From an uncultured Pseudobdellovibrionaceae bacterium (lineage in GTDB: Bacteria; Bdellovibrionota; Bdellovibrionia; Bdellovibrionales; JAGQZY01): a stretch of DNA of 64,000 nucleotides. Position numbers and translations under genes: made by a program. Below the pieces are notes generated by a model. That model ran no database searches and had not been told where the DNA came from. It saw nothing but the letters and a program-made list of their open reading frames with translations. This document shows, piece by piece, positions 3,452-63,860 of this stretch (the first letter of the stretch is position 1; each line of letters opens with the position of its first letter). The stretch lies in NCBI GenBank assembly GCA_964588335.1, contig CAZPOV010000011.1, forward strand, positions 6,784-70,783, written 5' to 3'.

Positions 3452-5413
3452 TTAGCTAACATCTTTCAGTTGGATATCTTTCTTTGGAATGAAAATTGAG
3501 AGTTGTGTTCCTCGGTGATCAGGGTGATCTTTAATCTGAACCTCTCCGTCAAGTTCTTCGACCATGCTTTTGATGGCACTCAAGCCGACGCCTCGGCCAC
3601 TGGTTTTGGTTAGGTTTTTTGCTGATGAATGGCTATCGATAAAAAGTAAGTCTTCTCGGTCCTTCAGTTGTTTTTTGATTGCTGGATCCAGCGTCTCCCA
3701 CTGCTTTTGAATATAGTTTTGATTTAATCCATTGCCATAGTCTTCAAGGAAAAGGCAGTACCCAGTGTCGGTGCTTCGAGTTTTTACTGAAATATGAATG
3801 GGCTTTGTTAAGTCGGCTAATAAATATCCGTGATCGATAGAATTTTGAATTCCGTGAGTTAAAATATTTTGCAATGGCTTGTGTAAATATTCGGGCCAGT
3901 CCCAGACCTGATCATCAATGGAGAGGGTTTGAAACTGGTTACGGGAATCAGACTCTCTCAGCTCTTCTTCAATGCGATATCTGAGGTCTCCAAGATATTT
4001 GTAGAGCGTCCAATTAACATTTTTGTTGGAAAGTTTTCCGAAAAGATGTTCAGCCACTTGCTGGAGTTCGCTATTCATTGTGAGGTACTTTTCAATTTTA
4101 ACCTCTAGGTTTTGCACGTCGGGATTGGAGACCGCAGTCTCAAGATCATGAATCAAGTTAGAAACCTCATCCATTTTATTGAGTCGAGTGTTGCCTTTAA
4201 GGCTATGCAAGTGATGCATTAGCTTGGTTTTTGACTCAGAATTGAAGTTGTTCAGTTCTGAGGCAACAGTGTCCATATCCTTTATAAGTTGCAAAGCCTC
4301 GGGTGTGCTGCTGCGGATAATGACCTGGGCAAGGTTTTGAGCGTGATTTTGTAATCTCTTTTCCTTTTCAAATCGTCTTTCATTTATTTTTTCATTGGTC
4401 ACATCTTCGACACTGACAATAATTTTTGCCACCAAGTCATCATGAACCAGTGGCGACCATGTCAGTTTCAGGTATTGACTTTGCTTGCCTTCGAATCGAC
4501 GGATCTCTTTTATCAAATGGTCTTTGTTCATTTCCCAATTTAAGGTATCTTCACCAAGGCACACAAAAAATGTGTTTTTGATTATGGAGAGTTGATCGGA
4601 GGAAACTTGGCTGTTAGAAAAAAGAACATCAATTAAAGAGCGTCCTTCTAGTTTTTCTTCAGGGAAAATTTCGCGAATTTTTCGGGAGTAATCGGGTTCA
4701 ATTTTTCCTTCATGGTTGCAACTTAATATTCCAACATCAACATTGTCGAAAATGGTTTTTAATTTGGTCTTTTGCCGAGCGATCTCATCAAGGGCCTTGG
4801 TCAGTCCTAGCTCATGTCGGTCAGCCATAGTTTTTTCAACCCAAATCATGATCGAAGAGAGTCCCGTGAAACATAGAGTGTCGAAAATAAGAACAGACAG
4901 TGGGAAGTCTTTGGAGTGCAGGCCAGTCACAGGAATCATTGAGTTGTGGGACAACCAATCGATCACGCAAGACATCAAAATGGCAAACGATAGTAAACTC
5001 AAGCGAATCCAATTTCGTGATCTTGAAAAAGCAATGATGCTGTAAAAAAGCGGCAAGAAGACCAGATAGTATCCGTTGAATGATTTGCCAAAGAAAATAG
5101 CCGCGTTTATTCCAGTGATCATCGTCAAAAAGTAGGCTGTGAGTCGAGCTTGAAACAGTCGATGTCTATGATTTAGATAGAAAATAAAAAGGGGAAGAAT
5201 CGCCATTGAAGAGGCAATTATCATTGAGTACCAGGGGCCCGACAGTTCATACATTTGCAGATTGATTAAAATAGCCATCACCAAGGCAAACATTGTCATA
5301 CCATTGGTCAAAATCGTTATCCGATTACTGGTTTCTCCTTCGAACTCACTGCAACCTAGGGTGGCTATTTGAATGAACTTATACTTTAGTACAGTTAGCA
5401 AACCGGTCTCCAT
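3452..5413 (-). CDS. membrane-anchored CheA-like histidine kinase (multi-TM N-terminus, PAS-like region, HPt, CheA-type ATPase; no CheW-like domain)
   Basis: About six hydrophobic helices in the first ~190 aa. HPt-type motif MHHLHSLKGNTRLNKM. CheA-type N-box ILTHGIQNSIDHG, G1 LEDYGNGL and G2 SGRGVGLSAIKSMVEELDGEV. The protein ends right after the ATPase domain. Confidence 0.7.
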   Translation of the reverse strand: METGLLTVLKYKFIQIATLGCSEFEGETSNRITILTNGMTMFALVMAILINLQMYELSGPWYSMIIASSMAILPLFIFYLNHRHRLFQARLTAYFLTMITGINAAIFFGKSFNGYYLVFLPLFYSIIAFSRSRNWIRLSLLSFAILMSCVIDWLSHNSMIPVTGLHSKDFPLSVLIFDTLCFTGLSSIMIWVEKTMADRHELGLTKALDEIARQKTKLKTIFDNVDVGILSCNHEGKIEPDYSRKIREIFPEEKLEGRSLIDVLFSNSQVSSDQLSIIKNTFFVCLGEDTLNWEMNKDHLIKEIRRFEGKQSQYLKLTWSPLVHDDLVAKIIVSVEDVTNEKINERRFEKEKRLQNHAQNLAQVIIRSSTPEALQLIKDMDTVASELNNFNSESKTKLMHHLHSLKGNTRLNKMDEVSNLIHDLETAVSNPDVQNLEVKIEKYLTMNSELQQVAEHLFGKLSNKNVNWTLYKYLGDLRYRIEEELRESDSRNQFQTLSIDDQVWDWPEYLHKPLQNILTHGIQNSIDHGYLLADLTKPIHISVKTRSTDTGYCLFLEDYGNGLNQNYIQKQWETLDPAIKKQLKDREDLLFIDSHSSAKNLTKTSGRGVGLSAIKSMVEELDGEVQIKDHPDHRGTQLSIFIPKKDIQLKDVS

Positions 5414-5529: not shown

Positions 5530-6087
5530 ATGAAAAAAACACCTCTCGTAGAAAATGTTGCTCAAGCCATTCAGGAGACTTTCCTTGCTCGCATCCAAAC
5601 CTATTCAAAAACTCAAGACGGCAAGATCATAAACCAAGAGGTTCCAGCCGGACGTTTGCATGACCTTAGTCTGGTGGTGATTTTACTGGCTGGCGAACAC
5701 GTTCACATAACATTTAAAGTTTTTTTTGATCATAAAGAGTGTGAGGAGTTGATAAACAAAATTTACACTCAAAAGCCTCGGTCCGGCGATCTTCGTAACC
5801 TTGTCACCGATTTCTTTAAAGAGGTTAGTAATTTAACAGCCGGTCATATGAAATGGCTGTTTGAAAATTCGAAAGTCGATTGTAATATCAGTCTGCCGAT
5901 TGCTCTACGGGGCTTTGATGAGTTCTTCTTTAATAAGGTAAAAGACAATTCCAGTTTCGAGGACAGTTGGGCCATTGCTTTTCCAAGCGGGACAGTTCAC
6001 TTTTCTAATATAATTTCTTTAGACTCTAGCCTGAAGGATATCGATTTAACAATTTCCGACCAGGCCGGAGAGATTGAGTTTTTTTAA
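5530..6087 (+). CDS. CheX/CheC-like protein (putative CheY-P phosphatase fold)
   Basis: 185 aa. LVTDFFKEVSNLTAGHMK resembles the CheX D.lgEl.NmiaG block. The stop overlaps the start of the downstream receiver gene (TAATG). Confidence 0.4.
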   Translation: MKKTPLVENVAQAIQETFLARIQTYSKTQDGKIINQEVPAGRLHDLSLVVILLAGEHVHITFKVFFDHKECEELINKIYTQKPRSGDLRNLVTDFFKEVSNLTAGHMKWLFENSKVDCNISLPIALRGFDEFFFNKVKDNSSFEDSWAIAFPSGTVHFSNIISLDSSLKDIDLTISDQAGEIEFF

Positions 6088-32320: not shown

Positions 32321-33325
32321 TTATTTTTTTGAAAAAGGGTGATGAGCTTCCATAGTATTGGCCAGTTGGTCCATATCAAGATGGGTATAAAGTTCGGTGG
32401 CGGCGAGACTCTGATGCCCAAGCAATTGCTGCAGGACTCTCAGGTCGGATCCACTGCTTAGTAAATGGGTGGCGTAACTGTGGCGAAGAGCGTGGGGATG
32501 CAAGGGCTTTAGTAGGCCGCTCTCTTTTCCCAAGTCTTTAATGCGTTGATAGGCACTGCGAGTGGGTAAGGGCTTGTTGCCCCATAGATACGGTCCGGTT
32601 CGATGTTCATTTTGTAAAGACAGGCAAACACTTTTGGGGATGATGGCTAGGCGTTCTTTGTTGCCTTTGCCTCGCACCAACAGAGTGCGCTTTTCAAACT
32701 TGAAGTCAGACCACTGCACTTGGCAGGCCTCTGAAACTCTCAGTCCACATCCGTACAGAAGAGAAAACAATTTCCGTTGTTGAATTTTTTTCTGGGTGAT
32801 TGGATCTTTGGCCAGGAATTGCAGGACGCCCATGCATTCATCCATGGAAATAAAGTGGGGAAGCTTTCTGTGAACCCCGCGAGGGGCTTCGACTTTCAAC
32901 CCGAGATCGATATTGTGAAAGCTGCGCAGCCAATTCAGAAAGCCATTGAGGCTGGATATTTTCCTTTTTCGGGATTTTATTGAGATATCGTCCCAAGATC
33001 GGAGCTTCTCCATCCCGCGCGCCGCCCAATCCTTATATCCCATTGTAATTGTTTGTTTTTCGTTAGATTGCACAAAATAGTGGCTATCCCCATTGATTTT
33101 CGGACCAGAAAGAATATATAAAGTATCAAGTTGAAAAACTTGCAGTACATCTGTGCTATAGGCGCGGAGGCTGTGTGGGGAGAGACCAGACTGGAAATCG
33201 AGATATTCCAGGTATTTGCATAGGTACTCCCCAAGATCCAGAGAACCTGAACTACCGTTTATTTCGATTTCATTGGAAAAAGTGCAAGTTTTTGAATTTT
33301 TTCTTGCATTTTTTACGCGCTGCAC
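32321..33325 (-). CDS. tyrosine recombinase, XerC/XerD family
   Basis: SLLYGCGLRVSE (Arg I), HPHALRHSYATHLLSSG (HxxR) and LLGHQSLAATELYTH (catalytic Tyr). N-terminal SAM-like block LSPHSLRAYSTDV. Confidence 0.75.
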   Translation of the reverse strand: MQRVKNARKNSKTCTFSNEIEINGSSGSLDLGEYLCKYLEYLDFQSGLSPHSLRAYSTDVLQVFQLDTLYILSGPKINGDSHYFVQSNEKQTITMGYKDWAARGMEKLRSWDDISIKSRKRKISSLNGFLNWLRSFHNIDLGLKVEAPRGVHRKLPHFISMDECMGVLQFLAKDPITQKKIQQRKLFSLLYGCGLRVSEACQVQWSDFKFEKRTLLVRGKGNKERLAIIPKSVCLSLQNEHRTGPYLWGNKPLPTRSAYQRIKDLGKESGLLKPLHPHALRHSYATHLLSSGSDLRVLQQLLGHQSLAATELYTHLDMDQLANTMEAHHPFSKK

Positions 33326-33383
33326 ATATACTCCGTGTCAAAATGATACGTTGTATCAAAAAGAAACAAATGAGGTGGTACGT

Positions 33384-34415
33384 ATGTCAAATACAACTTT
33401 TCCGGGTAGCCCTATTACTGGTGGTGCCTCTAATCCAATTTTAGCTGGAAACCAGGTTATACACAAATCGGACCTAATGAAACAGGTCATGAGGATGGTT
33501 GACCGAGTCGCTCCTAGCAACGCTTCTGTGCTGATTTTAGGTGAAAGTGGAACCGGTAAGGAGCTTTTAGCCCACGCCATCCACTCAAAAAGCCAACGTC
33601 GTGATAAGCCCTTTGTCGCTATCAACTGTGGAGCTCTTCGCGAGACTCTTCTTGAAAGTGAGCTGTTTGGTCACGAAAAAGGTGCTTTTACTGGAGCCTA
33701 CGCCAAGAAAATCGGTTTGGCCGAAATGGCTTCTGGAGGAACTCTGTTCCTTGATGAGATCGGTGAATTGAGCCCTGGAATGCAAGCCAAACTATTGCGC
33801 TTCATTCAAGAAGGCGAAGTTTATCGAGTTGGTGGTAAAGAGCCTATTCAGGTCGATATCCGATTGATCTCAGCCACCAACCGCGAGTTGGACGCTGAGG
33901 TTATGAAAGGAACATTCCGTGAAGATCTCTATTACCGAATCAACACGATCACTGTCCATTCGCCACCACTGCGTCGCCGCAAAGAAGATATTCCATTGTT
34001 GGTGGAACACTTTCTTGCCAAAAACACTTCAAGAATTTTAAATCGTGGGCGCAAAATGAGCGAAGAAGCGATGCAAATTTTGATGAAGTATGACTGGCCA
34101 GGAAACATTCGTGAGTTGCAAAACCTCTGTGAGCGTTTGCAAATTCTAGCGGATGGCGAAATCATTGTCGCCAGTGATCTACCAAACTCAATTGTCAATC
34201 CTGAGAACCGCATCTCGATGGATGAGTACGATCCTTCAATGACTCTTTACGAGCTAGAAAAGCGTCATATTATTAAAGCGCTGAATTACTTTGAAGGTAA
34301 CAAAACCCAAGCCGCTAACGCTCTTGGAATCACCATCAAGACCCTTTACAACAAATTGCACGAGTACGGTGAGTTTGAGAAGTTTGCGATTCACAGCAAA
34401 CCGAAAAAAGCATAA
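33384..34415 (+). CDS. sigma-54-dependent transcriptional activator lacking an N-terminal regulatory domain (AAA+ plus Fis-type HTH)
   Basis: Walker A GESGTGKE, intact GAFTGA loop ([13 protein letters not shown]), [10 protein letters not shown], and C-terminal [23 protein letters not shown]. The ATG at 33384 is preceded by GAGGTGG. The tracked start at 33216 overlaps the xer gene. Confidence 0.85.
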
Positions 34416-35177: not shown

Positions 35178-36521
35178 ATGGGAAATGCAGAAAAAGGTCC
35201 AAGTGTTCTTAGTCACATCCTCAATGGGTTGGTCTGCCTTATCCTCGCAGTTCTTTGGACTTTGCCAAGCTTGCTGAACGGTTTCCCCTTAAGTTACTAC
35301 GACTCCGCTTACTATGTTTACAATGCCTTTCACCTCCTTGAACCGGCCAATATTGCGTGGCGCCCCCTGACCTACAGTTTGTTATTGAGGCCCCCCTTCG
35401 AAGTGGCAGGCTTTTTAGGCGTCATTTTCCTGCAAAACATTTTGGTTGCTGGGTTCCTATTTAAATTCAGCCGACTGGTTTGGCCTGAATGTTCAAGAAA
35501 AGTCTTCTTTGCAATCGGACTTTTGTTAATGCTGACTCCCTTGCTCCATGTGAGTAATTTTATCATGCCTGATATTTTTAGTCCTTTAGCAGTCTTTGCC
35601 ATGCTTGGCTTTTTTCTCTGCAAACCAGGTGAACGTACCTTCTATTTTCTGGCCACAGCGTTTTTTTCATTCATGCATTTTTCAAATTTCATTTGTGTTA
35701 TTCCTTTAGTTATTTTTCATTTTTCAAAAAACTATCGCCGCGCTCTGTTCGCAGGAGTTGCAGTCGTTCTAACCATCCTGTCCGTTCGCTTTTTGTTTTT
35801 CTTTCCTAAAAAGAGCTTTGAAGAGTCGGCACACTATTTCGTTTATTCACGACTGGTCGCTTTCCAAATCACAGAGACTTATTTTTCACAAAAGTGTCCG
35901 GATGAAAAAATGGTCTTCTGTAACGCACAAAATAGGCATTTTGCTATTTGGAATAGTGATAGATCTCCCAATAGCGTCGCTCCAGGAATCGACATTCTGC
36001 CGAGTGTTGTTCAAGCCAATCAAGAGATCTTAAAATCAAGACTACTCTGGACCTATCTTTTTAAAGGCGTCGATCAAAGTCTCTTGCAGGCCTTGTTATT
36101 TTCACAACCAATGCCAATAATTTTGGACGATATAGCTTTGTTCCGGCAATACGGGAAATACGCTGGTGAAGATACTATTTTAGCATTTGCCAATCAAAAC
36201 ATCTTTAATGGGCGAAACTTTTCTCTTGAAAGCTATACCAAGACTGCCAGCTTTGTATTTCTGGGTCTGTCGATTATTAGTGTTCTAGTTTTAGGGATCT
36301 TATTATTCAAAAACCTTATTTTCGATTATGAAAAAAGGATCGTCTATTACTATTTTGCGGCCTATCTTCTAAACTGCATCGCTATCGGATTCTTTTCGGA
36401 GCCCCTGTCTCGCTATAACAATAAATTGGTCTGGGGATTCACTTTTTTGACTTTTATTTTTGTCAGCAAGTATCTTGCCGAACGTAACCAAAAAAATGCG
36501 GTTACATTGTCACTAAACTAA
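35178..36521 (+). CDS. polytopic membrane protein, possibly GT-C-type glycosyltransferase
   Basis: At least ten hydrophobic segments. Acidic/aromatic first loop (FPLSYYDSAYYVYN) as in ArnT/PMT-like GT-C enzymes. The function is speculative. Confidence 0.5.
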   Translation: MGNAEKGPSVLSHILNGLVCLILAVLWTLPSLLNGFPLSYYDSAYYVYNAFHLLEPANIAWRPLTYSLLLRPPFEVAGFLGVIFLQNILVAGFLFKFSRLVWPECSRKVFFAIGLLLMLTPLLHVSNFIMPDIFSPLAVFAMLGFFLCKPGERTFYFLATAFFSFMHFSNFICVIPLVIFHFSKNYRRALFAGVAVVLTILSVRFLFFFPKKSFEESAHYFVYSRLVAFQITETYFSQKCPDEKMVFCNAQNRHFAIWNSDRSPNSVAPGIDILPSVVQANQEILKSRLLWTYLFKGVDQSLLQALLFSQPMPIILDDIALFRQYGKYAGEDTILAFANQNIFNGRNFSLESYTKTASFVFLGLSIISVLVLGILLFKNLIFDYEKRIVYYYFAAYLLNCIAIGFFSEPLSRYNNKLVWGFTFLTFIFVSKYLAERNQKNAVTLSLN

Positions 36522-36567
36522 CTTAGCATCCGGCCAGTTTTCAATTCCACTCAATGGCGTCAGTTTT

Positions 36568-36590
36568 AATTTGAAGAACTTCAAATTTTT
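36568..36590 (+). terminator. weak AT-rich hairpin plus T-run after the membrane protein gene
   Basis: AATTTGAAG-aa-CTTCAAATT followed by TTT. The stem is AT-rich and the loop very short. Confidence 0.3.
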
Positions 36591-36805
36591 CGTTGCTTTC
36601 AGCGGCGTTGAAACTGTTACGATTTCTACGTTCTCTGCGCCAGAAAAAATAAGGCTGTAGAGTTTTAGGGGGAGATCAAGATTCATTCGTTCGATCTAAG
36701 CACCGAAATCAAACGAAAACTTGTCTCGAAATGAGACATGTCATTTTGTGACCGGCGAAGGTGGAATGATAAGGATATAGCGGAAACCGAGCATTGGGGG
36801 GCATT

Positions 36806-37564
36806 GTGAAGGTAAGCATTCGGATCATCTTATTTTTTCAGCTACTTGTTTTAGGGGCCTGCGGTATTGGCGAGGGTGTTAATCCATCCATCAAGACCGG
36901 CAGTCAGGAACAGTCTTCTTCAACCTCAACTTCATCGGCACCGCCAGTGGAAGTCAAAATCATCCACCAATGTGATCTTTCAGCCTACGTCAATCTGGAA
37001 CAAAATCGTGTCGACTTTTCTTACAGTACGGACCCAGCAGTGACAGTCCGTCGTCGTTATATCGATTTATTCAGAAGTGTCAGTTGGTCCACTCAGGCAC
37101 AAAAAGAAACTCAAATCAGAAATCTCTTGCGAGTCAACAGACTGACGCCACAACAGATCCAAGTTCGAATAGAGCAGCCAATCTGTACCGCTAGCAACTT
37201 TATGTTAGGAGAACAGCTGGAAGAGGGTGTTCTGCCGTTACAAGAACTTCTTGAAGCCGAATGTCCTGAGTTGAAGAGTCACAATATTTTCAGTGATGTC
37301 GACACAGATCTAGAACAGCAATTGGCCGACAAAATTCGCCGTGATTTTACCGAAGAAGAATACGCAGAGTTCGTTCAACCTTTTCACGCCCATGTCATTG
37401 ATTTGCTCATTGAAAATTCAAGCTATCTTGGGTTGACGTTCGGTATTAAAAAGCAAGGTGCCGCTATCATTCCAGAGTTTACTCAACGGCAAAAAGAAAT
37501 CAACGAGTCACAAGGTTGGCTCACCGCGCTTTTTCATAGCCAAGGCAATCTCTGTATCGAATAA
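36806..37564 (+). CDS. hypothetical lipoprotein
   Basis: With the GTG start at 36806 the protein begins MKVSIRIILFFQLLVLGACG (lipobox). A Ser/Thr-rich linker follows. No family recognised. Confidence 0.5.
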   Translation: MKVSIRIILFFQLLVLGACGIGEGVNPSIKTGSQEQSSSTSTSSAPPVEVKIIHQCDLSAYVNLEQNRVDFSYSTDPAVTVRRRYIDLFRSVSWSTQAQKETQIRNLLRVNRLTPQQIQVRIEQPICTASNFMLGEQLEEGVLPLQELLEAECPELKSHNIFSDVDTDLEQQLADKIRRDFTEEEYAEFVQPFHAHVIDLLIENSSYLGLTFGIKKQGAAIIPEFTQRQKEINESQGWLTALFHSQGNLCIE

Positions 37565-37653
37565 GCCATCCAAAATTGTTTAAGAATAAAAAAACCACCA
37601 TTAAATGGTGGTTTGTTAAAAAATAGTGGGACGGGCTGATTGGGATTAGAACT

Positions 37654-38478
37654 CTAGAAGTACGAGCCTTCGTCATCTTCGTCAAAATCATTGTCATCAT
37701 CAAGATCGTCGAAGGGGTTGAGTTCGGGGTCATCAAAGAGGTCATCGTCCTCTTGTTCATCTTCTTCAGCTTCTTCAAATTCATCGGAGTCGTCAGTGCT
37801 TCCCAGGCTATCCATATCGCCGCGAAGCTCTTCCATATCGCTCAAGTCATCTTCATCATCAAAGAAAGAGCGTTGCTTATCCTTGTCTTCCTCGACTTTA
37901 AATGGATTGGCACCAAGGATGGGCTTTTCATCCGTGTCTGAAGCCATGATGTCTTCAAACGAGGGAACAGCCGGTTTGGTTAAGACGCCACTGGCGGCCT
38001 CATCGTTGGCCTTGGCAACTTCTTTCTCGTCTTTTTTATTCTTCGGAGCAGGCTTTTTTTGAGCCGTTTTTTTAGAGGCTTTCTTTTTAGAAACCTTCTT
38101 TTTCGCTTTTTTCTTTGTAGTTTTTTTCTTAGCCTTTTTTTTCGTCTTCTTAGCCGCTTTTTTCTTGGCCTTCTTTTTAGACGTCGCTTTCTTTTTAGCC
38201 TTCTTTTTCGAAGCTTTCTTGGTGGCTTTTTTCTTAGCCTTCTTCTTTACCTTCTTTTTAGCTTTTTTGCGGGTCGTTTTCTTTTTAACCTTTTTACGGG
38301 TTGTTTTCTTTTTGGCCTTCTTTTTAGAGGCTTTCTTCGAACCCTTTTTACGAGGCGCTTTCTTTTTTGGTGCCTTTTTCTTACGAGTCGGCGCCTTTTT
38401 CTTGTTGGCCTTCTTTTTACGGCCTGGTGCCTTCTTTTTAATCACTTTTTTGCGTGTGGTTTTCTTCTTCTTTGCCAT
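37654..38478 (-). CDS. charge-segregated protein: histone-H1-like Lys/Ala-rich N-terminal half, poly-acidic C-terminal tail
   Basis: Longest ORF over the tract (274 aa), ATG preceded by GGGGGA ~10 nt upstream. AKKKKTTRKKVIKKKAPGRKKKANKKKAPTRKKKAPKKKAPRKK... for ~150 aa, then ...FFDDEDDLSDMEELRGDMDSLGSTDDSDEFEEAEEDEQEDDDLFDDPELNPFDDLDDDNDFDEDDEGSYF. Confidence 0.65.
   Translation of the reverse strand: MAKKKKTTRKKVIKKKAPGRKKKANKKKAPTRKKKAPKKKAPRKKGSKKASKKKAKKKTTRKKVKKKTTRKKAKKKVKKKAKKKATKKASKKKAKKKATSKKKAKKKAAKKTKKKAKKKTTKKKAKKKVSKKKASKKTAQKKPAPKNKKDEKEVAKANDEAASGVLTKPAVPSFEDIMASDTDEKPILGANPFKVEEDKDKQRSFFDDEDDLSDMEELRGDMDSLGSTDDSDEFEEAEEDEQEDDDLFDDPELNPFDDLDDDNDFDEDDEGSYF
38029..38475 (-). 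repeat. low-complexity AAG/AAA/GCC codon tract (imperfect KKKA/KKKT repeats)
   Basis: The plus strand is almost pure pyrimidine-rich (ctttttagcc ttctttttcg aagctttctt...) for ~450 nt. The repeats are imperfect tandem units without fixed spacers. Confidence 0.7.
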
Positions 38479-38633
38479 AGTACAGAAATCCCCCGTCGGA
38501 TTTACATTTGCGAAAGGCTTATTTTCGATAGGTGGCTATAATTGTCAAAAGGAAACCGATTTAACGCGCCCGCCACAGAATACTGGCCGGTGATTTGGGC
38601 TTAAAACGAACAAGTGATCTTATTTGCTCCGGT

Positions 38634-38668
38634 CAAAAAAACAGGAGGGACCCCCATGATCCCTCCTG
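38634..38668 (-). terminator. rho-independent terminator after fliC
   Basis: On the minus strand CAGGAGGGA-loop-TCCCTCCTG is followed by TTTTTTT (plus strand aaaaaaaCAGGAGGGAcccccatgaTCCCTCCTG). Confidence 0.8.
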
Positions 38669-38684
38669 AAACGGGCAATTAAGT

Positions 38685-39518
38685 TTATCCTAGAAGTTGC
38701 AAAGCAAGTTGATTCTTCTGATTAGCCTGAGCTAACGTTGCGGTATTTGCCTGCATTAAAATTTGGCTACTTGTTAAGTTCGCAGTCTCAGCAGCGATGT
38801 CTGTATCGCGGATTCGACTGTTGGCAGCAGAAAGATTTTCTTCCATGCTTGATAGATTCGAAACAGTGGAGTTGAAGCGGTTTTGCACGGCACCGATATT
38901 GGCGCGAATTCTATTCACTTCAGTTTGCGCGGCATCCAGTTCAGCAAGACCTGTTTGCGCACCCGCTTTGTCTGAAAAATCAAGGGAAGCTAATCCAAGG
39001 GCGTCGATTGTTGCGACGTTGGTTGAGCCGTCCCAGCTGATTCGATCAGATGAGTCACTGTTAAAGATTCCCACTTGGAAGTCAAACTGAGGAGTTGAAC
39101 CATCAAGAAGATTGGTTGATCCCCATTTCGTAGTTTCAGAAATTCTCTGCATTTCTTCTTTAAGTTGAGCGACCTCTGCGTTGATAAAGCCTCTTTCATC
39201 GGCTCCAACTGTGTCAGAAGCGGCTTGGATGCCTAACTCACGAAGACGGATAACGATATTTCCAATCTCATTCAAACCACCTTCAGCAGTTTGCACTAAA
39301 GAGATGGCATCGTTGGTGTTTCTTTTGGCTTGGCTGGCTGAACGAATTTGCGCCTTTAAGCCTTCAGAAATGGCTAGACCGGCAGCATCGTCAGCGGCTT
39401 TGTTAATTCGGCTTCCAGAAGCTAGTTTCTCAAAACTGCTTTGGATCGCTAGGTTATTTTTCTGCATGGTTCGGTGAGCATTGATCGCCGACATATTGGT
39501 AGCAACTCGCATAGACAT
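38685..39518 (-). CDS. fliC: flagellin
   Basis: Conserved N-terminus MSMRVATNMSAINAHRTMQKN...LASGSRINKAADDAAGLAISE and C-terminus SRIRDTDIAAETANLTSSQILMQANTATLAQANQ. Strong RBS GGGAGGA. Confidence 0.9.
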   Translation of the reverse strand: MSMRVATNMSAINAHRTMQKNNLAIQSSFEKLASGSRINKAADDAAGLAISEGLKAQIRSASQAKRNTNDAISLVQTAEGGLNEIGNIVIRLRELGIQAASDTVGADERGFINAEVAQLKEEMQRISETTKWGSTNLLDGSTPQFDFQVGIFNSDSSDRISWDGSTNVATIDALGLASLDFSDKAGAQTGLAELDAAQTEVNRIRANIGAVQNRFNSTVSNLSSMEENLSAANSRIRDTDIAAETANLTSSQILMQANTATLAQANQKNQLALQLLG

Positions 39519-39572
39519 ATTTGTTTCCTCCCGTTTTTTCTAAAAAAACTTTTGTCATTTTTAACACCCCAC

Positions 39573-39599
39573 TATTCGGGAGTTGCGTTAGCTTCTTGA
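39573..39599 (-). promoter_or_regulatory. possible sigma-28 (FliA)-type promoter for fliC
   Basis: The minus strand reads TCAA-N15-CCCGAATA versus consensus TAAA-N15-GCCGATAA (3/4 and 5/8 matches), ~50 nt upstream of the fliC ATG. Confidence 0.3.
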
Positions 39600-39736
39600 C
39601 GAGACTTGAGTCTGGAATAGGACTTTCCGTCTACTTTCTAGGCCGACGTCCTAAGGCATAGGTCTTGATTTCAAGAGGAAGGTCGAGGAATAAAGTGGTA
39701 AGAATCCAACAATTCTTTGGTCGATCGAAGACTTTT

Positions 39737-40636
39737 TTATTGTTTTAGTGTCAAAAACAGCTGCTCGACCAACCACTGTGGGTCATCTTCCATGGGCAAA
39801 TGTCCAGCCCATGGATGAATGATAATGTTTTTTGTGGCGAATTTATCGATCATCATTTTAGTCAATTTGCGATTAATGACTTGATCGTGGTCGGCAAATA
39901 TAACGTAAACATCTTTGTCGAGTTGATCGAGGCAGTTCCAGACTCGCCAATCACTAATGATATTAAGGGCTGAGGCAAAGCTAACGTGGGCGGCAGGGTC
40001 CATGTAGGGACGGTAGTAGGATTGAATCATCTCATCTGATATTTGCCCAGGGTCTTTTAATGAACGCACCAAGATTCTTTTGATGGCATTGGCCGTCAAT
40101 ACCAATGGTGTCAGTTTGGCGATCCAAGCGAAACGTCGTAGCCAATCAGAAACTAAGCTGGGATGAGCGGAGGGTGTAATGGCAATGCATTTTTTCACTC
40201 TCTTATTGTTATGCTTAAGCCACAAACCAATTTCTGCGCCCATCGAGTGTCCAACAATGTGGAAGTCTTTGATTTTTAAATAGTCCATGAGCTCGATAAT
40301 CACATCCGACTGTGAATCGAGAGTCATAGGTGCTGACATTTTCTTCGAGCTGTTGCCAAAACCCCATAAATCTATAGAGATCACCTGGTATTTCGACGCC
40401 AGTTCCGGAGCAATTTTTCGCCAGCAATAAGTGGAGGCTCCCAGACCATGCATCAAAACAACGGCGGGTCCCTTTTTGCCGTAAAGCTTGTAAAAGATCG
40501 ACCCTTGCTGACTTTCAAATTGCAATCCTTCAGACGGTTCAACGCCCTCTCTCTTTAAATAAAGAAAGACAACCCCAAGTCCAATAACTAAGAAGATGCC
40601 GCTCAACAATAATATTAAGGTCAGAGTATGACTCAC
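39737..40636 (-). CDS. alpha/beta-fold hydrolase with N-terminal membrane anchor
   Basis: HGLGAS oxyanion block and nucleophile elbow GHSMGAEIG. GTG start overlapping the upstream stop (TAGTG). Confidence 0.75.
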   Translation of the reverse strand: MSHTLTLILLLSGIFLVIGLGVVFLYLKREGVEPSEGLQFESQQGSIFYKLYGKKGPAVVLMHGLGASTYCWRKIAPELASKYQVISIDLWGFGNSSKKMSAPMTLDSQSDVIIELMDYLKIKDFHIVGHSMGAEIGLWLKHNNKRVKKCIAITPSAHPSLVSDWLRRFAWIAKLTPLVLTANAIKRILVRSLKDPGQISDEMIQSYYRPYMDPAAHVSFASALNIISDWRVWNCLDQLDKDVYVIFADHDQVINRKLTKMMIDKFATKNIIIHPWAGHLPMEDDPQWLVEQLFLTLKQ

Positions 40637-40893
40637 TAATCGATCTCTAGAAAACGGCAGAACGCCATGTGACCAGTCAGATTAAAAGTCTCGTGTTGCT
40701 GGTTGAGGCGATGGGGAGCGGTCGGCATACCCATCAGGCACAGGTCTTTTTCGGGATCAAAAAAAGAGCAGTGCTCACAGGCGTAAGTTAAAGGTAAGTT
40801 ATTGAAATCAGAGGCTTGGACGCGATCGAGTTTGATCGTTCGGCGTATTCTTTTGGGCGTGAAGGCCCCTGGATTTTGACCATTTTGTGACAT
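40636..40893 (-). CDS. small Cys/His-containing hypothetical protein
   Basis: Preferred start MSQNGQ (ATG at 40893) has GGAG 7 nt upstream. Contains CEHCSFFDPEKDLC...H...H...C. Translationally coupled to the downstream hydrolase. Confidence 0.4.
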   Translation of the reverse strand: MSQNGQNPGAFTPKRIRRTIKLDRVQASDFNNLPLTYACEHCSFFDPEKDLCLMGMPTAPHRLNQQHETFNLTGHMAFCRFLEID

Positions 40894-40919
40894 TGACAAC
40901 TCCGAAATCGGCCCCATCT
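40893..40919 (+). promoter_or_regulatory. sigma-32 (heat-shock)-type promoter for clpB
   Basis: TTGACA-N13-CCCCATCT versus consensus (C)TTGAAA-N13-17-CCCCATNT, ending ~40 nt upstream of the clpB ATG. Confidence 0.5.
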
Positions 40920-40960
40920 TAAGTATATAGAATGAAGATGTAAACCACTTTGAGGACAGC

Positions 40961-43543
40961 ATGAACGATATAGAAAAAATGACAGTTCCAGCAAAACAAA
41001 CGATGCAGAAAGCCGCGAAGACGGCAGAGAAGTTGTCTCACTCATCGGTTGAGCCAGAGCATTTGCTCGCACAAATTTTCTCTGAGCCCACCCATCGTAT
41101 TTCGGATCTATTAAAAGCCATTGGCGCCAATCGCAGTGAGCTGATTGCGGCCTTGAAAGGGCGTCTTGATGGAATGCCCAAAGTAACGGCTGGACAGTCC
41201 AACCTGCTAGCCAGTCAACGATTGCAATCTCTTTTTAAGTTCAGCGAAGGTTTAGCTGGTGAGCTTGGTGATGGTTTCATTTCGGTGGAACATTTTTTCG
41301 TCTGTTCACTCAAAATGGGAGATCGTGAACTCAATCAATTGTATAAAAAGCTCAACATCGAAGAAACCAAAGTGATGGAGGCCTACACCGAATTAAGAGG
41401 TGGCGAAACCATTCAAAGTGAGAATCCCGACGGTGACTACAAAGTTTTAGAGAAATACACCCGTGATTTGACTCAATTGGCAGGTGAAGGAAAGCTTGAT
41501 CCTGTGATCGGTCGAAATGAAGAGATCCGACGAACCATTCAAGTTTTGGCTCGTCGGAAAAAGAACAATCCGGTACTCATCGGCGAACCCGGAGTCGGTA
41601 AAACAGCCATTGCCGAAGGATTGGCGCTGCGAATTATTAGCAAAGATGTTCCCGAAGTCTTAAACGACAAAAGAATTCTGAGCCTTGATATGGGCTCGTT
41701 GGTCGCTGGTGCCAAATATCGAGGAGAATTTGAGGAGCGCTTAAAAGGCGTTATCAAAGAAGTTCAAAACGCCAATGGTGAGATCATTCTCTTCATTGAC
41801 GAGCTTCATACTCTGGTGGGGGCTGGCAAAACCGATGGCGCCATGGATGCCGGACAATTATTAAAGCCGGCGCTGGCTCGCGGAGAGTTGCGTTGTATTG
41901 GCGCCACCACCCTTGATGAGTATCGAGAGTACATCGAAAAAGACAAAGCCCTGGAAAGACGGTTTCAAACCGTTTTCGTTGGTGAACCTTCGGTGCAGGA
42001 TACCATAACGATTTTAAGAGGCTTGAAAGACAAATACGAAGTGCATCACGGAGTGAAAATCACAGACGCGGCTTTGATTGCAGCGGCACAGCTGTCCGAT
42101 CGTTATATTGCTAACCGGTTTTTACCGGACAAAGCCATCGATCTGGTGGATGAAGCGGCTAGTAAGCTGAGTATGGAGATCAAGTCTGTGCCGGTTGAAA
42201 TTGATCGCGTCCAGCGTGATATCATGCAGCTGCAAATCGAAGAGCAGGCCCTTAAAAATGAAAACTCGAATCCGAAACGACTGGGAGAGCTAGAAAGTGA
42301 GATTAAAGAGCTTCAAGCCCAATTGGAAACTTTAGAGCGTCAATGGAATAAAGAACGCCAAAGTATTGAAGGACTAAAAGAGGTCAAGCGAAGAATTGAA
42401 GAGATCAAAGCGCAAATTGAAATTGCCGAGCGCGAGGGCAACCTAGAGAAAGCGGCCCAATTGAAGTACGGCGAGCTGCCAAATTTAGAAAAAGAAAAAG
42501 AAAATCTCGATCAAGCCTCATCGGAAAAAGAAAAAGAAGACGATGACAAAAAGCTGTTGCGTGAAATTGTCGACCCCGAATTGATTTCACAAGTGGTGTC
42601 CAGTTGGACCGGAATTCCAGTCGATAAAATGATCAAGAGCGAGACCGAAAAACTTCTCGAAATGGAAAAGCTCTTAGGAGGCCGTGTGGTCGGACAGGAC
42701 CAAGCGCTTGAGGTTGTCTCGGATGCCATTCGCCGATCCCGTTCGGCCTTGTCAGATCCCAACAAACCGATTGGCTCTTTTCTGTTTCTGGGGCCTACGG
42801 GTGTTGGAAAAACCGAAGTTGTTAAAGCATTGGCTGAATTCATGTTTGATACCGAAGAGAATATTGTTCGCATCGATATGAGTGAATACATGGAGAAACA
42901 TTCGGTGTCTCGTCTAATAGGAGCGCCTCCCGGATACGTTGGATACGATGAGGGCGGACAATTGACCGAAGCGGTTCGCCGTCGTCCTTATTCGGTGGTT
43001 TTGCTTGACGAGGTTGAAAAGGCTCACAAAGATGTCTTTAATATCTTGTTGCAGGTTTTTGATGAAGGCCGGTTGACGGATGGTCAAGGGCGAACTGTTG
43101 ATTTTAAAAATACAATTATCATCATGACGTCCAATGTGGGGTCGGAATTTATTATGGACGATAAGCTCACTGATGAGCAGATTGAAAATAAAATCGATGA
43201 AACCTTAGCCAGCTACTTTCGACCGGAATTTTTAAACCGAATTGATGAGCGCGTGGTCTTTAAGAAGCTCAGCCAAGAAAACCTTCACGGAATTGTTAAA
43301 ATTCAGTTGAATCGATTTATCAAACGGTTGGCCGAACAAGAAATTAACATTGAGCTCGACGATGCCGCTGTCGAGTACCTTGCTAAAAAAGGTTATGATC
43401 CCACATTCGGTGCGCGGCCCTTGAAGAGAGTGATACAGAAAGAAATTGTCAATGTTCTGTCGCGAAAGTTGCTCGCAGGTGAGATCAATAAAGGCGATAC
43501 CGTTAAGGTTAAGGGACATGATCTGGGGCTTAAATTTTCCTAA
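40961..43543 (+). CDS. clpB: ATP-dependent disaggregase ClpB
   Basis: Clp N repeats, two AAA+ modules ([16 protein letters not shown]), a long coiled-coil middle domain and ATTLDEYR. Confidence 0.95.
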
Positions 43544-62020: not shown

Positions 62021-62096
62021 GCTGAATTAGCTCAATTGGTAGAGCAACTGATTTGTAATCAGTAGGTTGGGGGTTCGAGTCCCTCATTCAGCACCA
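62021..62096 (+). tRNA. tRNA-Thr (anticodon UGU)
   Basis: Cloverleaf by hand: acceptor GCTGAAT/ATTCAGC, anticodon stem ACTGA/TCAGT, loop TTTGTAA, T-loop GGTTCGAGTCC, encoded CCA. Confidence 0.9.
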
Positions 62097-62195
62097 AATT
62101 TTGACATCGGGTTCCATAACTTGGGTCGAAATTTCGGGTAGATGGATCAAACAATTTGCCTTGAAGCTCTAAGTAATAGAGTCTTATTGGTTCGA

Positions 62196-62280
62196 GGAGG
62201 AGTACTCAAGCGGTCAACGAGGGCAGACTGTAAATCTGCTGGCTTAGCCTTCAGAGGTTCGAATCCTCTCTCCTCCACCA
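62196..62280 (+). tRNA. tRNA-Tyr (anticodon GUA)
   Basis: Acceptor GGAGGAG/CTCCTCC, anticodon loop CTGTAAA, long variable arm, T-loop GGTTCGAATCC, encoded CCA. Confidence 0.9.
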
Positions 62281-62386
62281 TTTTTTTAAGGTGGATTTTT
62301 GGCTTCGGCCATTTTGATTGTCAATTTGCTAAAAACCCCTTTGGGGGTGTAAAGCAAGGGGAATCAAAAAGGAAAAGACAACACGA

Positions 62387-62462
62387 GCGGGAGTAACTCA
62401 ATTGGTAGAGTGTCAGCCTTCCAAGCTGAATGTTGCGGGTTCGAGACCCGTCTCCCGCTCCA
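62387..62462 (+). tRNA. tRNA-Gly (anticodon UCC)
   Basis: Acceptor GCGGGAG/CTCCCGC, anticodon stem TCAGC/GCTGA, loop CTTCCAA, T-loop GGTTCGAGACC, encoded CCA. Confidence 0.9.
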
Positions 62463-62495
62463 AATTTTAAAAAAAGTCTCTTTGGAGAGGAACCT

Positions 62496-62570
62496 GCTGA
62501 TGTGGCTCAGTGGTAGAGCACGCCCTTGGTAAGGGCGAGGTCGAGAGTTCGATTCTCTCCATCAGCACCA
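62496..62570 (+). tRNA. tRNA-Thr (anticodon GGU)
   Basis: Acceptor GCTGATG/CATCAGC, anticodon stem CGCCC/GGGCG, loop TTGGTAA, T-loop AGTTCGATTCT, encoded CCA. Confidence 0.9.
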
Positions 62571-62669: not shown

Positions 62670-63860
62670 ATGGCTAAAGAGAAGTTTAATCGGGGAAAAC
62701 CCCATGTGAATATCGGTACTGTCGGCCACGTTGACCATGGTAAAACAACTTTGACGGCTGCAATCACCAAAACTCTAGCTGTGAACGGTGGTGGGCAGGC
62801 TATGGATTACGACATGATCGATAAAGCCCCTGAAGAGAGAGAGCGTGGAATCACGATTTCGACCGCCCACGTTGAGTACGAGACAGAAAAGCGTCACTAT
62901 GCTCACGTTGATTGTCCCGGACACGCCGATTATGTGAAAAACATGATCACTGGTGCGGCTCAGATGGATGGTGGAATCCTTGTGGTTTCTGCAGCGGATG
63001 GACCTATGCCTCAAACCCGCGAGCACATCCTTTTGGCTCGTCAGGTTGGTGTTCCAGCTCTTGTTGTTTTCCTTAACAAATGTGACCAAGTCGACGACGA
63101 AGAGCTTCTCGAGCTTGTTGAGCTTGAGATCCGTGAGCTTCTTAACAAATACGAATTCCCTGGCGACGACATTCCAATCGTTCGTGGTTCAGCTCTAAAA
63201 GCTCTTGAGGGTGAAGACAGCGAAATGGGTACACAAGCCATCATGAAGTTGATGGATGCCGTTGATGCGACTGTTCCTGAGCCTGAGCGTGATGTTGATA
63301 AGACCTTCTTGATGCCTATCGAGGACGTTTTCTCTATCTCTGGTCGTGGTACTGTTGTTACCGGTCGTATTGAGCGTGGTATTGTAAAAGTGGGTGAAGA
63401 GATCGAAATCGTTGGAATCAAGCCAACCACTAAAACCACTGTGACTGGAATCGAAATGTTCCGTAAGCTTCTTGATGAAGGTATGGCGGGAGATAACGCT
63501 GGTTGTCTTCTTCGTGGTACTAAGAAAGAAGATGTTGAGCGTGGTCAAGTTCTTGCCAAGCCTGGAACAATCACTCCTCACAAAAAATTCAAATGTGAGT
63601 CTTATATCCTTACTAAAGAAGAAGGTGGACGACACACTCCATTCTTCACTAACTACCGTCCTCAGTTCTACTTCCGTACAACTGATGTTACCGGTGTTTG
63701 TTCTTTGAAAGAAGGAACTGAAATGGTTATGCCTGGTGACCAAATTGAAATGAGCGTTGAGCTAATTGCTCCAATCGCCATGGAAAAAGGTCTTAAGTTT
63801 GCCATTCGTGAAGGTGGCCGTACCGTTGGTGCCGGCGTCGTTACTGAAATCGTAGAGTAA
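62670..63860 (+). CDS. tuf: translation elongation factor Tu
   Basis: [22 protein letters not shown] and SALKALEG. Full-length at 396 aa, with RBS AGGAGG. Confidence 0.95.

Follow-up and report, generated by a model that had tools for sequence, protein, structure and literature searches.

A narrowly distributed protein family of Bdellovibrionales joining an H1-like lysine tract to a conserved, motif-bearing acidic module

Low-complexity lysine-rich repeats are found in several bacterial proteins, and the H1-like, lysine-rich C-terminal domain of Pseudomonas AlgP, a proposed interactor of both polyphosphate (polyP) granules and the nucleoid, affects granule spacing (PMC9239181). In Streptomyces TopA, lysine repeats are needed for DNA binding, and loss of two terminal acidic residues raises the affinity (PMC5714199). 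Acidic disordered segments have been described as well: the acidic C-terminal domain of Hfq acts as a mimic of nucleic acid and keeps DNA from aggregating indiscriminately (PMC5606850), and the acidic tip of SSB, a protein that binds single-stranded DNA, docks partners and contributes to condensation (PMC7584906). When the two types of chain meet, as in the case of H1 and prothymosin-alpha, a disordered polyelectrolyte complex with fast exchange is formed (PMC7661507; 10.1101/2020.04.17.046243). Here, we describe a gene that encodes both types of segment in one polypeptide. It lies on the minus strand of a 64-kb stretch of DNA from an uncultured Pseudobdellovibrionaceae bacterium (contig CAZPOV010000011.1, positions 6,784 to 70,783; the whole of this stretch is called the window), and we refer to its product as the Lys/acidic protein. 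The family occupies 12 loci, the window, L001-L008, L010, L011 and L012 (L009 carries the separate family of P0001, discussed below). The family is best filed as a genuine orphan, narrowly distributed and strongly constrained: a bacterial H1-like variant with an obligatory acidic module that carries six motifs, M1 to M6. We tentatively favor the view that the protein is a disordered anchor on a polyanion, likely the nucleoid, whose acidic module competes for the lysine tract and docks partners.

The Lys/acidic protein resembles each of the described systems in part. With the C-terminal tail of eukaryotic linker histone H1 and its acidic chaperone prothymosin-alpha it has in common the pairing of a disordered polycation rich in Lys, Ala, Thr and Pro with a disordered polyanion rich in D/E, and the interaction expected of the two is likewise of high affinity, highly dynamic, charge-driven and in competition with DNA. 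The differences are that H1 and prothymosin-alpha are two chains, that H1 has a winged helix, that prothymosin-alpha lacks aromatic motifs, and that there is no sequence homology. The tip of the Hfq C-terminal domain and the acidic tail of HMGB1 are tethered acidic disordered segments that can compete with nucleic acid for a basic surface, as proposed here, and so limit non-specific binding and aggregation, but they are short or homopolymeric and sit on folded domains (the Sm ring and HMG boxes, respectively), whereas the basic partner in the Lys/acidic protein is disordered, the tail has position-specific hydrophobic motifs and the net charge is strongly positive. Chlamydia Hc1/Hc2, Pseudomonas AlgP, PhaF/PhaM and the mycobacterial MDP1/HupB tails also have a low-complexity region of Lys-rich repeats, which would be expected to bind polyanions (PMC9239181); these, however, are KPAA or PAKKA repeats rather than the (K/R)3-x(1-3) found here, and this group lacks the conserved acidic module of 120 amino acids (aa) that defines the Lys/acidic family. 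The repeats of Streptomyces TopA are appended to an enzyme, with only two acidic residues concerned, whereas the Lys/acidic protein has an acidic part of ~120 aa and no enzyme domain. The likeness to SSB lies in an acidic-aromatic free C-terminus closing a disordered region. Both tips are acidic and aromatic, but their sequences differ (DDDIPF in SSB, DDEGSYF in M6 of the window protein, DD..[SN]YF in 11 of the 12 members), and the five further motifs upstream are present only in the Lys/acidic protein. Literature searches returned no account of this architecture in Bdellovibrio or other bacteria.

Profile searches were in keeping with an orphan family. The whole protein matched no Pfam family at E ≤ 0.1 and no NCBIfam model, neither of its halves had a Pfam, NCBIfam or PDB relative, and nine C-terminal halves gave no Pfam match even at E ≤ 10, FlgM included. 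The Linker_histone winged-helix domain of H1/H5 was not found, and the protein is H1-like in the composition of its basic half only. The chlamydial Hc1 and Hc2 (PF07382) profiles gave no Pfam match at E ≤ 0.1; PF07382 has precomputed matches on some unrelated Lys-rich proteins, so that this model captures mainly composition. Neither the SSB OB fold (PF00436) nor the HMG box was matched in Pfam. AlgP, in which a structured N-terminal domain precedes C-terminal KPAA-type repeats, gave no match, and the window protein has no N-terminal domain and carries its KKKx repeats at the N-terminus.

Lysine tracts were also met outside the family. P0001 (233 aa) and P0006 (195 aa) have the same layout, Lys-rich at the N-terminus and acidic at the C-terminus, with none of M1-M6 and in another genomic context. 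They have in common the motif DEYNxDDE...YGWxY..LDxPE, and P0006 ends in DDDDEDPFV. The P0001 gene (L009 6001-6702) lies between the genes of a 931-aa protein with a weak Tad match (PF13400) and of a protein with a weak HD-domain match, with an SSB gene nearby. The two proteins are apparently unrelated to the Lys/acidic family, being either an independent family or one diverged beyond recognition. Many metagenomic proteins of the DksA/TraR type (P0002-P0026; PF01258 + PF21157) bear a Lys-rich N-terminal extension of ~150 aa made of KKKx repeats, e.g. P0011 (305 aa). Arrangements of this kind suggest that lysine tracts may be reusable N-terminal anchors for C-terminal effectors.

Two charge blocks and six conserved motifs

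The open reading frame (ORF), 37654..38478 (-), starts with ATG, encodes 274 aa plus a stop codon and is preceded by its own ribosome-binding site (RBS), as the preliminary description of this DNA had it; the protein begins MAKKKKTTRKK and ends DDEGSYF. That description, made from the sequence alone, also gave a fair account of the composition. Residues 2-150, said to be almost entirely K/A/T/R/P/G/S, are so to 94%, including 85 K; the repeats, said to be of KKKA/KKKT type, have exactly three residues in 22 of the 34 basic runs; and the last ~80 aa, said to be dominated by D/E, hold 42 D/E against 4 K/R and end in GSYF. In all orthologs 1-3 small residues lie between successive basic runs, so that the pattern recurs every 4-5 residues. 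All ten aromatic residues of the protein are in the acidic half, with none in the polybasic tract. The parts of the protein are as follows, with identities counted over the 12 sequences of the family.

38029..38475 (-): polybasic tract, aa 2-150; (K/R)3 triplets with spacers of 1-3 small residues (A, T, S, V, P)
37948..37977 (-): M1, K168-I177, KPAVPSFEDI; family form KPxVPS[FL]E[ED]I, with K, P, V, P, E and I kept in 11 or more sequences
37894..37908 (-): M2, N191-V195, NPFKV; family form GNPFKV, with N, P, F and V kept in 11 or more sequences
37861..37875 (-): M3, Q202-F206, QRSFF; Qx[SDP][FL]F in 10 of 12 (not in L006 and L011), QGSLF in three members
37804..37836 (-): M4, M215-L225, MEELRGDMDSL, the core of a predicted amphipathic helix; family form EEL[RH]GDMDxL, with E, E, L, G, D, M, D and L kept in 11 or more sequences
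37699..37743 (-): M5, D246-D260, DLFDDPELNPFDDLD; family form DLFDDP..PFDDLD, with DLFDD and PFDDLD identical in at least 11 of 12; the best-kept island
37657..37677 (-): M6, D268-F274, DDEGSYF-COOH, an acidic run with an aromatic tip; family form D[YF]..DDDEG[SN]YF-COOH, with DD...YF in at least 11 of 12 and an aromatic C-terminus in all

Charged residues make up a fraction of 0.55 of the protein, the net charge per residue is +0.18, and the two signs are strongly segregated (kappa 0.52, against 0.15 ± 0.03 in shuffled sequences). No second tract of such extreme charge was found in any frame of the 64-kb window. The N-terminal half carries ~+90 and the C-terminal half -42. The protein had been thought to be self-neutralising, and this does not hold: the net charge is +48 in the window protein and +32 to +52 across seven intact or repaired orthologs, in which the part before M1 has +63 to +93 and the remainder -31 to -41. 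Neither a hydrophobic N-terminus, a signal peptide nor a transmembrane stretch was seen in the sequence, and the protein is predicted to be cytoplasmic and intrinsically disordered.

The acidic half is where the family is most conserved in sequence. In the alignment of the 12 C-terminal halves, 34 columns are identical in at least 11 sequences and cluster into six islands, M1 to M6, and the 28 columns with a hydrophobic consensus have a class conservation of 0.88. The M5 peptides, used as search patterns, retrieved relatives. A stretch previously described as a short neutral linker turned out to hold M1 and M2, which are among the best-kept motifs of the family. An AlphaFold 2 (AF2) model of the C-terminal half (predicted template-modelling score, pTM, 0.19; mean predicted local-distance score, pLDDT, 62.6) is mostly disordered with two helices only. 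One, F174-A179, overlaps M1 (model residues 26-31); the other, E209-L225 (model residues 61-77, block pLDDT 71-73), runs across M4 and has M215, L218, M222 and L225 on one side. Together, the islands argue for an acidic half composed of short linear motifs and helices whose folding would be coupled to binding, rather than of a generic polyacid. The preliminary description, which cited the docking or auto-inhibitory acidic tails of SSB and HMGB1, had suggested that the tail might mask the basic half until triggered; the invariant F/L/M/Y/P motifs speak for specific docking in addition to any masking. Two matches to eukaryote-type motifs, RGD (in ELRGDMDSL) and NPF, were set aside as coincidence, with HGD in the divergent members and the N of a second NPF unconserved. 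In practice, the family can be defined by (K/R)3-x repeats over 110-165 aa followed by M1, M2, M4, M5 and M6, all of which are present in the window protein.

A small family under purifying selection

The Lys/acidic gene is real and under purifying selection. Between the window and L003, its closest ortholog, the ratio of nonsynonymous to synonymous change (omega) is 0.06 in the N-terminal half and 0.02 in the C-terminal half (dS 0.68-1.06, dN 0.02-0.04), the acidic half thus being held more tightly than the basic half; third codon positions account for 39 of the 42 nucleotide differences in the acidic half, and all indels between orthologs are in frame. The ClpB and flagellin proteins of these two loci are 98% and 96% identical, respectively. 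Codons of the types AAR, GAN and GCN make up the sense strand, and ORFs on the opposite strand are an expected result (in the window 160, 142 and 123 aa, in L003 257 aa, elsewhere 53-145 aa). Their starts are not conserved, and they change length or break from one ortholog to the next. The possibility, raised in the preliminary description, that a plus-strand ORF is the real gene was therefore not borne out, given a sense-frame omega of 0.02-0.06 and conserved signals on the sense strand.

Homologues were found by searching with the C-terminal 126 aa, followed by genome, metagenome and contig look-ups, and all 12 loci are from metagenome-assembled genomes or metagenomes of Bdellovibrionales; three of them (L003, L004 and L005) represent GTDB species and bear the title 'Bdellovibrionales bacterium'. 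Three matches came from a scan of 185,579 species genomes and 7 from an exhaustive profile search of 1.84 billion representative proteins (E-values 1e-58 to 4e-4), a second profile search of 5.8 billion proteins also gave 7, and a metagenome scan with a 6-sequence alignment added one new locus (L008). Searches with the full-length protein returned composition-driven matches only (Lys-extended DksA), missed the true relatives and were useless for orthology. The preliminary description had raised the question of whether homologues without the acidic tail exist. In this family, no tail-less and no tract-less version was found: both halves are present in six intact orthologs, in four frameshifted loci and in one gapped locus, and L002, a 591-bp contig beginning 21 nt 5' of the called start, is too short to show whether it has both. 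An apparent 'tail-only' or 'short-tract' subfamily (P0027-P0034) was dropped after inspection of the DNA, which revealed artefacts of gene calling, frameshift and assembly.

The gene is broken by a 1-nt indel or an assembly gap in 5 of the 12 loci, always in or beside the lysine tract. L001 has nine A's where eight restore the frame (break at ~5898-5906), and removal of one A gives a 280-aa ortholog; L007, L011 and L012 have single indels inside or beside the tract (~1440-1460, ~480-540 and ~4900-5000, respectively); and L006 has an N-run within it (4720-4830). The contig names of L001 and L012 carry '2x', which suggests that their frameshifts are errors. In L010 the gene is intact (262 aa), and only its last 103 aa were called, from an internal start. 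The family is thus systematically truncated in public catalogues because lysine-rich tracts break assemblies and gene calls. No record of the window protein was found in protein catalogues, and public sets probably contain fewer Lys-rich proteins than there are in nature.

The tract looks guarded against slippage. Runs of nine or more A's are absent from all seven intact or repaired genes, whereas shuffles of the lysine codons (AAA/AAG) predict 3-6 per gene; the fraction of 2000 shuffles with runs as short as the real gene ranged from 0.0175 down to 0 across the seven. In E. coli, ribosomes slide on iterated AAA codons (PMC4363877). The avoidance of long A-runs suggests selection against slippage, for faithful expression, and it speaks against designed phase variation at homopolymers. 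The repetitive tract had been expected to vary in length. It does so, in that the part before M1 ranges from 125 to 177 aa, with indels that are all in frame.

A possible disordered anchor on the nucleoid or another polyanion

What might such a protein do? We infer nucleic-acid binding, competition between tail and tract, docking and a nucleoid location from physics, conservation and precedent. On physical grounds, ~90 lysines in a disordered chain will in all likelihood bind any polyanion. The first block (~150 aa, ~+90) would serve as a multivalent anchor of no particular specificity; its cellular polyanion would most likely be chromosomal DNA, with RNA as a possibility. The second block (~120 aa, ~-42) would act as a tethered polyanion that, either in cis or in trans, contends with nucleic acid for a portion of the tract, and this competition could keep binding dynamic and avert irreversible aggregation or condensation. 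The invariant aromatic and hydrophobic motifs M1-M6 of the second block would dock one or more folded partners, making the protein an adaptor at the surface of the polyanion. Because +32 to +52 remains uncompensated, the protein would stay bound to its polyanion and never be fully switched off. We consider this reading the likeliest of those at hand, and hold it tentatively. A more ambitious form of it, and a rather unlikely one, is that of a single-chain H1/prothymosin: a bacterial chromatin or condensate protein with its own disordered chaperone, fluidising the DNA condensation driven by the lysines and using the aromatic motifs and the C-terminal tip to bring replication, repair or transcription factors to the nucleoid. 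If this were true, compaction in these Bdellovibrionales would be tunable and partner-loaded, unlike that by the HU and histone-fold proteins of B. bacteriovorus. M3 resembles the pentapeptide QL[SD]LF, which binds the pocket of the beta sliding clamp, and is a lead only.

Several observations weigh against an anchor on the nucleoid. No folded DNA-binding domain was found in the protein (Pfam, E ≤ 0.1), and the charge of the tail does not scale clearly with that of the tract among orthologs. The resemblance of M6 to the SSB tip is weak, with GSYF instead of IPF, as is that of M3 to the clamp motif, M3 being absent in 2 of the 12 members. The nucleoid proteins published for B. bacteriovorus are SMC, HU, Fis, IHF, Dps, Bd0055 and Bd3044, a list that includes no protein of the Lys/acidic type (10.1101/2025.09.24.678257). 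The family is also tiny, at 7 matches in 1.84 billion representatives. Given its size and its absence from the B. bacteriovorus list, it cannot be a general solution for the compaction of predatory nucleoids.

The most serious alternative, to which we give about half the credence of the nucleoid anchor, is an association with RNA or the ribosome, the protein being a chaperone, a hibernation factor or a condensate scaffold on rRNA or mRNA whose block charge drives RNA-dependent phase separation. A comparable case is that of BR-bodies, with the charge-patterned C-terminal domain of RNase E. High charge and high kappa suit RNA as well as DNA, RNA is the most abundant polyanion of the cell, and the promoter (see below), with a perfect -35 hexamer, has the look of a strong, constitutive one. 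On the other hand, no genes for ribosomal proteins or RNA metabolism adjoin the Lys/acidic gene in the loci with readable immediate neighbors, and the bacterial Lys-rich repeat proteins studied so far are mostly DNA-associated (PMC5714199, PMC9239181). A further polyanion to be considered is polyP. As proposed for AlgP, which provides the precedent through its effect on granule spacing in Pseudomonas (PMC9239181), the tract could bind polyP and the tail could link the granules to another structure. We regard an organizer of polyP or other granules as improbable: no ppk, ppx, CHAD or phasin genes are nearby, the KKKx repeats and the architecture are unlike those of AlgP, and no homology was found (Pfam/NCBIfam).

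Expression signals, neighboring genes and significance

The remaining alternatives turn mostly on the surroundings of the gene, for which the following elements were located.

38558..38567 (-): upstream element GCGTTAAATC, followed by a T-rich stretch, directly 5' of the -35 hexamer
38521..38548 (-): sigma-70-like promoter (promoter scan); TTGACA 38548..38543, 16-nt spacer, GAAAAT 38526..38521
38489..38494 (-): RBS GGGGGA, 10 nt 5' of the ATG
37592..37614 (-): intrinsic terminator of the Lys/acidic gene (terminator scan); 10-bp stem and T-run
38642..38668 (-): fliC terminator (terminator scan); stem-loop kept in the 5-locus alignment
38685..39518 (-): fliC, with Flagellin_N and Flagellin_C (Pfam)

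The GCGTTAAATC element is invariant or nearly so in the 5-locus alignment and recognizable also in L007, L008 and L011; it may be an UP element or the site of a regulator. The promoter, TTGACAAT-N10-CTATCGAAAA, is exact in seven loci, including the divergent L010, with variants in L007, L011 and L012, and the RBS core GG[GA]G is kept at the same position in the alignment. The RBS and the position of the gene just past the fliC terminator, both claimed from the start, can be read in the sequence. Read in this way, the Lys/acidic gene and fliC are two transcription units, split by the fliC terminator. A sigma-28 promoter was considered and dropped: spacing and hexamers, as read against the consensus sequences, are nearer to sigma-70, and there is no motif in common with the fliC upstream region. 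That region (39519..39736 (-) of the window, ~220 nt) contains blocks that are invariant across five loci, e.g. AAGTCTCGTCAAGA, CCCGA and AAAAACGGGAGGAA, the last at the RBS. One possibility is that the blocks represent a promoter of flagellar type together with a regulatory leader, e.g. with a CsrA-type GGA site at the RBS.

The Lys/acidic gene is part of a shared backbone with the order HAD hydrolase, integrase, sigma-54 activator, Lys/acidic gene, fliC, hydrolase, small108, clpB, esterase and riboflavin genes. The preliminary description placed it beside fliC, and this is the case in 8 of the 12 loci (directly adjacent in seven, with a lipoprotein gene between in L006), the flagellin upstream having 275-277 aa in all eight. 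It is not the case in three: in L011 and L012 the Lys/acidic gene follows small108 and fliC is missing, and in L010 both are missing. The L002 contig is too short to show a neighbor. The link to fliC is one of local synteny, neither an operon nor universal.

The most persistent neighbor is small108 (40636..40962 (-) in the window; L001 3993-4301, L003 3094-3417, L004 3066-3350, L005 3168-3455, L006 1156-1371, L011 36-266 and L012 2835-3074), which adjoins clpB, is transcribed divergently from it, and in L011 directly precedes the Lys/acidic gene. Its product, a small Cys-rich protein, ends in a conserved FCRFLEID and has invariant C62, C65, C75, C102 and H84, a set suggestive of a zinc-binding site. 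It has no Pfam and no PDB match, and its single-sequence AF2 model (pLDDT 35) is unusable. On the downstream side, the window (35178..37564) and L003 have extra genes before the sigma-54 activator (33216..34415 in the window), one an ORF of 256 aa whose N-terminus is lipoprotein-like (LVLGAC), the other a hydrophobic ORF of 447 aa. In L001, L005 and L006 the activator follows the Lys/acidic gene almost directly, and L004 has other genes there, which marks the downstream side as a variable site of insertion. Transposase genes lie near the Lys/acidic gene in L010 (IS66-family and mutator-type, 1-2900) and in L011 (Transposase_31, 4070-5227), and may explain the loss of the clpB/fliC neighborhood in these two loci. 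Elsewhere in the window there are four tRNA genes (62021-62567), the gene for EF-Tu (62670..63860) and a fifth tRNA gene cut by the window end (64000).

The persistence of clpB and small108 as neighbors, even in a divergent locus without fliC, together with the extreme charge and disorder of the protein, brings to mind a stress-protective, hyper-charged disordered shield ('Hero'- or hydrophilin-like) that works alongside ClpB. We think this as improbable as a polyP organizer. The gene is not co-transcribed with clpB, from which it is separated by small108, itself divergent from clpB, and by up to two further genes; its promoter does not resemble the heat-shock consensus; and a generic shield has no need of six invariant motif islands. 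The linkage may be a matter of ancestry alone, as the region is a conserved chromosomal backbone.

Marginally less probable still is a flagellum-linked factor, either a regulator or a substrate of flagellar type III export, co-inherited with fliC. It would account for the place of the gene downstream of the 275-277-aa flagellin, directly so in seven loci and with one gene between in L006, and the NCBIfam model YvyF ('flagellar region protein') weakly matches small108, with an E-value of 0.005 and 16.8 bits where the cut-off is 124. Between fliC and the Lys/acidic gene, nevertheless, stand a strong terminator and a promoter that is separate and conserved, and no motif common to the two upstream regions was found in the aligned loci. 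Moreover, L010, L011 and L012 lack fliC, a lipoprotein gene is inserted in L006, and the full protein has no Pfam or NCBIfam match to FlgM, FliS, FliW or other flagellar families.

A polycationic effector directed at prey, with the acidic half as a pro-region that protects the producer in the manner of the anionic propieces of cationic antimicrobial peptides, would suit the Bdellovibrionales lineage label, and its charge logic fits. It is nonetheless very unlikely, as the sequence has no signal peptide or recognizable secretion signal, the tail offsets under half of the charge of the tract, and the tail, unlike a disposable propiece, is the more conserved and motif-rich half. Finally, a spurious low-complexity ORF, or a plus-strand gene as the real one, to which the antisense ORFs (those of 160, 142 and 123 aa of the window and the 257-aa one of L003) and the frequent omission of the full-length ORF by gene callers and databases might point, is effectively refuted by the comparative data: a sense-frame omega of 0.02-0.06, indels that are all in frame, a start, RBS, promoter and terminator conserved on the sense strand, and antisense ORFs that change length or break between orthologs.

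The narrow range of the family limits its general importance. If the mechanism proposed for the nucleoid anchor is true, bacteria would possess in the Lys/acidic protein a natural diblock polyampholyte (+90 / -42) whose charge blocks and docking motifs have both been conserved in evolution. It would then provide a model for the tuning of condensation by a tethered polyanion, for disordered hubs, and for translatability despite ~90 lysine codons. It would also be a lineage-specific candidate in the question of how Bdellovibrio-like nucleoids are compacted.

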